Assembly (NCBI GenBank): GCA_951406725.2
Contig: OX597815.1
Span: forward strand, 158,906,001-158,970,000
Length of the DNA: 64,000 nucleotides
Source of the DNA: Octopus vulgaris
Lineage: Eukaryota
Direction of reading: 5' to 3'
Shown: piece after piece, positions 15,431-15,551 of the stretch
Position numbering within the stretch: the stretch's first letter is position 1
Layout of the letters: every line of letters starts with the position of its first letter
Made by a program: the position numbers and the translations under genes
The notes under the pieces: model-generated
Told to the model about the DNA's origin: nothing
Database searches by the model: none
The model's input: only the letters and a program-made list of their open reading frames with translations

Positions 15431-15481
15431 TTTGTCAAAATATTTTCGCCGCTTTGAGACTGCAACCTGTTCACTGACAAA
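15431..15481 (-). ncRNA. Putative minimal type I hammerhead ribozyme, G3:C8 core variant (mirror copy)
   Basis: Minus strand tttgtca-GTGAACA-g-gttgc(agtctcaaa)gcggc-GAAA-atat-TT-tgacaaa; perfect 7-bp stem I. Confidence 0.6.
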
Positions 15482-15500
15482 ATTCTGTGCAGCACGGAAT

Positions 15501-15551
15501 TTTGTTAGTGAACAGGTTGCGATCTCAAAGCGACGAAAATATTTTGACAAA
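15501..15551 (+). ncRNA. Putative minimal type I hammerhead ribozyme, G3:C8 core variant
   Basis: tttgtta-GTGAACA-g-gttgc(gatctcaaa)gcgac-GAAA-atat-TT-tgacaaa: 7-bp stem I, 5-bp stem II, palindromic AATATT in place of stem III. Confidence 0.6.

Follow-up and report, generated by a model that had tools for sequence, protein, structure and literature searches.

We analysed a 64,000-nucleotide stretch of Octopus vulgaris DNA, referred to here as the window, and focused on an inverted repeat whose two arms (15354-15490 and 15492-15628) are 137 nt each and 93% complementary, with nine mismatches. Both arms carry, in the same order, a stem I of seven pairs, GTGAACA, an extra G, a stem II of five pairs, GAAA, ATATTT and the returning strand of stem I. 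Stems I and II, the G10.1-C11.1 pair, the extra nucleotide after position 9 and a palindromic helix III are all present, while the canonical hammerhead core CUGANGA is replaced by GUGAACA, so that the motif is a variant of the minimal type I hammerhead and not a canonical member. On the minus strand the motif spans 15431-15481, with G3 at 15474, C8 at 15469, the extra G at 15467, stem II at 15466-15462/15452-15448, GAAA at 15447-15444, the palindromic helix III (AAUAUU) at 15444-15439 and U17 at 15438. The second copy lies on the plus strand at 15501-15551, with G3 at 15508, C8 at 15513 and U17 at 15544. Cuts are predicted after 15438 on the minus strand and after 15544 on the plus strand. The initial annotation had proposed this layout, and we recovered the same coordinates in both arms. 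The predicted folds show hammerhead topology in both motifs, with ordinary stability (z of -1.19 and -1.48), and a pattern scan for minimal hammerheads with any pairing combination at positions 3 and 8 returned only these two in the window. An Rfam search of the window gave no match at the gathering score, and the 16 matches at E<=10 included no hammerhead family; the sub-threshold matches at the palindrome were miRNA hairpins only, which we discarded as artefacts of the palindrome itself.

The locus had been described as a 275-bp palindrome. The arms are indeed inverted as described, but the element as a whole is asymmetric, since a tail of 63 nt (15291-15353, minus strand) extends one arm only. 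This tail is common to other copies and was matched in 21 of 21 loci found by the palindrome search, although in one of these (L012) it belongs to a second copy. The long arm (15291-15490, minus strand, which is the sense strand) corresponds to one short unit of a Penelope-like element (PLE), comprising the 3' part of a pseudo-LTR (pLTR) and the start of an open reading frame (ORF). Over 205 nt it shares 86% identity with each of the two pLTR regions of a long copy described below (L354), 86% being its identity to that copy's subfamily (L353, L354, L355 and L360), and 90-94% with L356, L349, L342 and L023. The first 31 codons of the parent ORF (MAYKHL...QVHL.N) lie at 15291-15383 on the minus strand; this frame is kept across related families and runs on into an ORF for reverse transcriptase (RT) and GIY-YIG endonuclease in L353 and L354. 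The second arm (15492-15628, plus strand) is an inverted, tail-less copy of the same unit.

Several other features were observed in the window. At 58574-58610 (plus strand) there is a CTGAAGA ... GAAA TATA motif reminiscent of a canonical minimal hammerhead; its stem I is weak. Related short PLE fragments, one of the S1 type discussed below and one of another family, form small inverted repeats at 25607-25752 and 44485-44540. Identical 158-aa frames at 6952-7425 and 7861-8334 (plus strand) lie within a 909-bp tandem duplication; we take them to be similar to a fragment of a Helitron PIF1 helicase. Tandem 184-bp copies of an abundant dispersed repeat occupy 37299-37666 and 52136-52812.

A search of the species' own genome (2.8 Gb in 227 contigs) yielded 3,820 candidate places. 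The unit measures about 205-213 nt, and in two-armed copies one arm continues as the tail while the other ends short. Among 58 loci chosen by their 3' part, an inverted arm was present in 32 and a single arm in 26. In these tail-selected loci the ends of arms are concentrated at unit positions 147-155 and 204-213, and most arms begin at positions 2-25; for most copies the start thus lies about 55-63 nt upstream of the predicted cut. Exact target duplications, mostly of 9-15 bp, were detected in 31 of 96 loci, against a mean of 1.5 and a maximum of 5 with shuffled flanks; the window's own copy has none. Targets are AT-rich, as is usual for PLEs. The two arms of one insertion have 82 of 274 variants in common, compared with about 4% between insertions.

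Short copies begin at AG-ATGCAGC and have nothing in common further upstream. The base preceding the AG is G in 29 of 75 short-copy arms and T or C in 20, whereas the parent has C (or T). We tentatively read the short-copy start as a capped RNA start with the cap G copied; the site also resembles a splice acceptor. In the long copy L354, a branch-point-like CTAAC, a pyrimidine tract and an AG stand just ahead of the short-copy start (2196-2222), and this segment is initiator-like as well. Head-to-tail junctions between units are rare: three exact matches occur genome-wide, two of them in one five-unit array and one unrelated. The array (L310 1309-2456; G000:C27, 31.28 Mb) has its five units head-to-tail with (AT)n between them and constitutes a natural substrate capable of dimer formation.

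The last 93 nt of the unit form an open frame that is also kept in related short elements. A profile of this frame identified eight proteins at E<=0.001, one of which, P0005 from Octopus bimaculoides, extends into a longer protein; searching the O. vulgaris genome with P0005 revealed the long copies. L354 has the layout pLTR - ORF - pLTR with a period of 4.26 kb, and unit copies at 2220-2424 and 6481-6681 on the same strand are the direct pseudo-LTR repeats that flank the ORF. In its translation we read by eye the RT motifs DK(S)G, DVVSLYPS, G.AIG and YSRYVDD, followed by GIY-YIG, with linker cysteines ahead of the latter (C-QSN-C-AV-C, which fits CX2-5CxxC). The Pfam GIY-YIG model matched L355 (E=1.8e-5; 25.4 bits against a cut-off of 22.6), the Pfam RT model matched none of the five proteins submitted, and a PDB sequence search gave no match. 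L353, L354, L355 and L360 are 96-98% identical to one another and near-intact, yet each is broken or truncated. L356, the only long copy of the window's own subfamily, is older and shares 84% identity with L354. Two sets of candidates were set aside during the search for the parent: the best 148 GIY-YIG matches (30 loci and 6 longer stretches inspected) belong to other PLE families, and an apparent continuation of the ORF at L137 is actually a neighbouring element.

The tail of the short copies is therefore the start of the parent ORF, within its first 31 codons. With a single ORF for RT and C-terminal GIY-YIG, direct pLTRs, an inverted truncated copy with a one-sided tail and variable target duplications, the family has the features of endonuclease-bearing (EN+) PLEs, and the palindrome is almost certainly a short non-autonomous insertion of PLE origin. 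The pLTRs of L353, L354, L355 and L360 contain GTGAACA in all eight readable motifs, which bears out the earlier proposal of a PLE-linked minimal type I hammerhead motif.

The exchanged core is not a peculiarity of this locus. With the rest of the 23-nt motif fixed, G3:C8 was found in 4,689 of 5,203 matches genome-wide, counting arms separately; of the others, 333 have G3 with another base at position 8 and 181 have another base at position 3. The exact 23-nt motif thus has 4,689 matches, whereas its reversed control has none. In the tail-selected set U4, G5, A6, A9, GAAA, U16.1 and H17 are each kept in 58-73 of 62-75 arms, and N17 is U. The swapped core suggested initially is therefore family-wide and extends to the parent pLTRs; the consensus is GTGAACA rather than CTGAAGA or an unconserved core. 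Two copies with CTGAAGA were considered as an ancestral canonical subfamily and rejected: 0.47 such copies are expected from single-variant rates, and the partner arm of one of them (L131) is G3:C8.

One exception is G3·G8, which accounts for 37 of the 100 listed among the 333 matches without C8, compared with a neutral C-to-G share of 14.6% (p=3e-8). By extrapolation there would be about 120 such matches (about 2%); they are spread over several subfamilies and include L356. Of 11 two-arm insertions with a G8 arm, 8 have C8 in the partner arm. Divergence is 0.035 for G8 copies and 0.043 for C8 copies (p=0.09), so G8 copies are not older and a role for G·G as a relic intermediate is unsupported; with the F2 family taken as outgroup, we read G·G as secondary on the basis of these sequences. 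The G3·G8 share is uneven among contigs, with 1 of 16 on C1 and 16 of 27 on C5 (p=0.005).

Related lineages provide a comparison for the 3:8 pair. The older family F2 keeps G3:C8, with N7 = C, a changed loop II, a helix III of AAUU (also palindromic) and one stem I pair that is G-C instead of U-A. In nine F2 arms obtained with a downstream pattern and read by hand, G3 occurs in 8, C8 in 7, and C3 or G8 in none; one further arm was left out of this set, having been selected on the core. In the S2 family (1,402 matches), 30 copies were selected on the sequence from position 5 onward, G8 included; 27 of them have C3, and the family shows compensatory changes in its 2.1:1.1 pair and in stem II. 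For S1 (2,383 matches), a hand tally of the 100 matches listed gave 90 U3:A8, 6 U3·G8, 3 C3/A8 and 1 U3/U8. S1 had been taken for canonical from pattern-selected copies, and then for U3·G8 from the 24 best matches; the larger count shows that U3:A8 is dominant. The minor U3·G8 subfamily looks, from its sequences, like the wobble intermediate of a compensatory change. Five of the six G8 cases in S1, a family that includes L227, L231 and L382, come with a variant of loop II. U17 is common to F1, F2, S1 and the A9C family described next, and S2 has C17. The A9C family is a young sister with an intact 1,312-aa ORF, 54% identical over RT and endonuclease, which has C3:G8 but an A9C change. Its copies (L357 2442-6377, L358 2282-6217 and about 20 further places) bear the pLTR hammerhead CUGAUGC and have apparently spread with the core change. 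An abundant and unrelated PLE family with a 781-aa protein (L097, L099, L100, L103, L108 and L114) has a U3:A8 minimal hammerhead downstream of its endonuclease.

Among 14 copies picked by hand, every cell of stem II and of the 3:8 pair was paired (84 of 84), with 3:8 types GC in six, CG in four, UA in two and UG in two, and none of the control structures slid along the same copies exceeded 56%; the 14 are related, were chosen for intact motifs and represent about four lineages. If two of 11 core positions change, the probability that they are 3 and 8 and still form a Watson-Crick pair is 0.006. An unchanged core alone is weak evidence because spacer identity between the family consensuses is 71-87% (unchanged-core p of 0.02-0.2). 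The existence of C3:G8, U3:A8 and older G3:C8 lineages together with compensatory stem changes makes the 3-8 pair look selected, and selection on it is likely. Covariation of the stems and of the 3:8 pair, which the initial annotation had named as a check, is thus seen between these families.

Starting from the observed anatomy, parent, consensus core and covariation between families, we propose the following scheme. A capped RNA would start about 55-63 nt upstream of the predicted cut, the PLE protein would nick AT-rich DNA, and two cDNAs would be primed at two sites in the ORF start. Joined head to head, these cDNAs would produce a long arm with the tail and a short inverted arm between target duplications of 9-15 bp. 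The observed anatomy, with two end points 55-60 nt apart, fits the scheme described for PAc (Poseidon of Anolis carolinensis). Uncleaved RNA would be the main template, so that cleavage, if any, would process tandem precursor transcripts and set no copy ends. A weak cut after U17 might occur where the AAUAUU palindromes of two head-to-tail copies pair with each other, or where the element's protein assists. The pLTR motifs of the parent follow one another head to tail on the same strand, so that this pairing would be open to them; folding of a dimer by minimum free energy gave strand-swapped stems with no helix III pairing and was uninformative. The weakness of the UUU cleavage triplet had been raised as a caveat earlier. 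N17 is indeed U in this family, but U17 may be the very feature that allows G3 to function, since PMC3884650 describes higher activity of a G3-C8 variant when position 17 is G than when it is C.

We consider it likely that the G3:C8 pLTR motif, carried here in a PLE-derived short insertion, still forms a hammerhead active site with a candidate weak cut after U17. The principal alternative is that of a vestigial ribozyme, in which the PLE origin is the same but the motif no longer cuts, its fold either serving another job (protein binding, template folding or overlap with a promoter) or being merely inherited. We judge this rather unlikely, although several observations that also speak against a strict need for the 3:8 pair would suit it: mobile G3·G8 copies exist, the most intact sister family has A9C, copies begin upstream of the cut, and no pile-up of RNA ends within the motif was seen in three RNA-seq runs of a related species, which is a weak test. 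Those runs contained 1,306-1,842 reads each on the unit, equal on both strands, with the ORF barely covered, and the signal is probably mostly read-through of host transcripts. In the same runs no splice joint ahead of the motif was visible, on stretches that included hardly any sequence upstream of it. Starts at the cut site itself numbered 8-14 copies against 1-8 at each neighbouring position, with no clear excess, in a hand tally of 100 of 157 informative matches that rests on copies with a truncated or mutated motif. Moreover, PAc hammerhead mutants insert normally in vitro according to the available text of PMC11167929. Against a loss of activity, two lineages changed both position 3 and position 8 to new Watson-Crick pairs, and the part of PMC8495972 that was available indicates that the 3-8 tertiary pair is important for the active conformation, a requirement not readily expected of a non-catalytic role.

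Two further readings concern the palindrome itself. The motifs of the two arms are 35 nt apart and their helix III is self-complementary, which might suggest that they work together here as a functional dimer. Their opposite strand orientation, however, means that any one RNA carries one sense motif and that the pair is unable to form a dimer at this site; for a read-through RNA of the palindrome, folding predicts a single long hairpin (-211.7 kcal/mol) that buries the motifs, and almost half of the tail-selected loci (26 of 58) have a single arm in any case. A dimer at the locus is therefore very improbable. Both motifs of the twin arrangement noted initially are present, but they are passengers, and the twinning is a by-product of integration. 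A palindromic DNA transposon of the MITE type with a chance likeness to a hammerhead could account for the long inverted repeat, the high copy number and the lack of an Rfam hammerhead match. It is refuted by the asymmetric tail, the variable inversion junction, the solo arms, the target duplications of 9-15 bp and the existence of an RT/GIY-YIG parent in which the unit occurs as direct repeats; the symmetric terminal inverted repeats and fixed short target duplication of the MITE class are absent.

The C3-G8 pair has long been treated as invariant, and G3:C8 is the textbook rescue mutant. The family described here occurs naturally, numbers thousands of copies and has near-intact parents, which indicates that evolution has used the G3:C8 solution, and three Watson-Crick 3:8 states within one PLE clade provide comparative evidence of selection for the active fold, although such selection on PLE hammerheads is debatable, given that insertion in vitro proceeds without cleavage. 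The family also exposes a blind spot in searches based on CUGANGA, and its natural sequences offer a series for kinetics. A further proposal, which we put forward only tentatively, is that this may be the first G3:C8 hammerhead that is natural, fixed and active, that the clade may preserve the walks C:G -> U·G -> U:A and C:G -> G:C (via G·G), and that the U17 background may avoid a G3-C17 trap. If this proposal is true, CUGANGA-based hammerhead censuses would overlook whole retroelement families, and selection for catalysis on PLE hammerheads could be tested directly on natural sequences. Seehafer's descriptor reportedly accepted any Watson-Crick pair at 3:8, and natural G3:C8 may therefore have been reported before. 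In the literature searched, including part of the PMC4209133 supplements, we found no natural G3:C8, which appeared only as an engineered rescue. What this analysis adds is the parent element, the identification of the tail with the beginning of the ORF, and the range of 3:8 states within the clade. The initial suggestion of a natural covariant family missed by CUGANGA searches thus stands as regards a G3:C8 family without an Rfam match, but 3:8 covariation as such had been published, as U3:A8, in the portions of PMC4209133 and PMC3088659 available to us.

Natural core variants including U3-A8, the only 3:8 variant described there, were presented by Perreault et al. 2011 (PMC3088659). PMC4209133 describes natural U3-A8 covariation in PLE hammerheads with an extra nucleotide between 9 and 10.1, G10.1-C11.1 and a palindromic helix III. 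The elements share with ours the same pLTR site, motif pairs on opposite strands and mostly single truncated copies, while ours differ in the G3:C8 core, a stem I of seven pairs, a stem II of five and N17 = U. An inverted truncated copy with a one-sided tail is a PLE signature according to Craig et al. 2021 (PMC8557442). Our parent resembles the Neptune/Nematis-type PLEs of that study in its single ORF with RT followed by GIY-YIG, linker cysteines, two cysteines in GIY-YIG, inverted truncated copy, tail and (TA)n targets, the likeness being one of features; it differs in a long protein (about 1,050-1,310 aa) that the Pfam RT model does not match.

A mechanistic parallel is PAc, in which, according to Frangieh et al. 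2024 (PMC11167929), RT starts at two sites within the beginning of the ORF and the tail lies between them, with both strands nicked and extended and uncleaved RNA as template. Both systems have a hammerhead at the pLTR-ORF junction, an ORF-start tail between two end points and AT-rich targets. In PAc, an engineered C3G/G8C exchange partly regains cleavage and needs protein to do so, whereas here G3:C8 is natural. In our element the ATG follows the predicted cut by 55 nt and the tail is about 63 nt, against 30-40 in PAc, and our parent has a CX3CxxC linker that Penelope/Poseidon lack (PMC8557442). Finally, the non-LTR retrozymes (bioRxiv 10.64898/2026.07.22.740005) are, like our units, short non-autonomous hammerhead elements derived from PLE pLTRs; they are tandem arrays by definition, whereas the units described here occur as solo or inverted copies and in one head-to-tail array of five.
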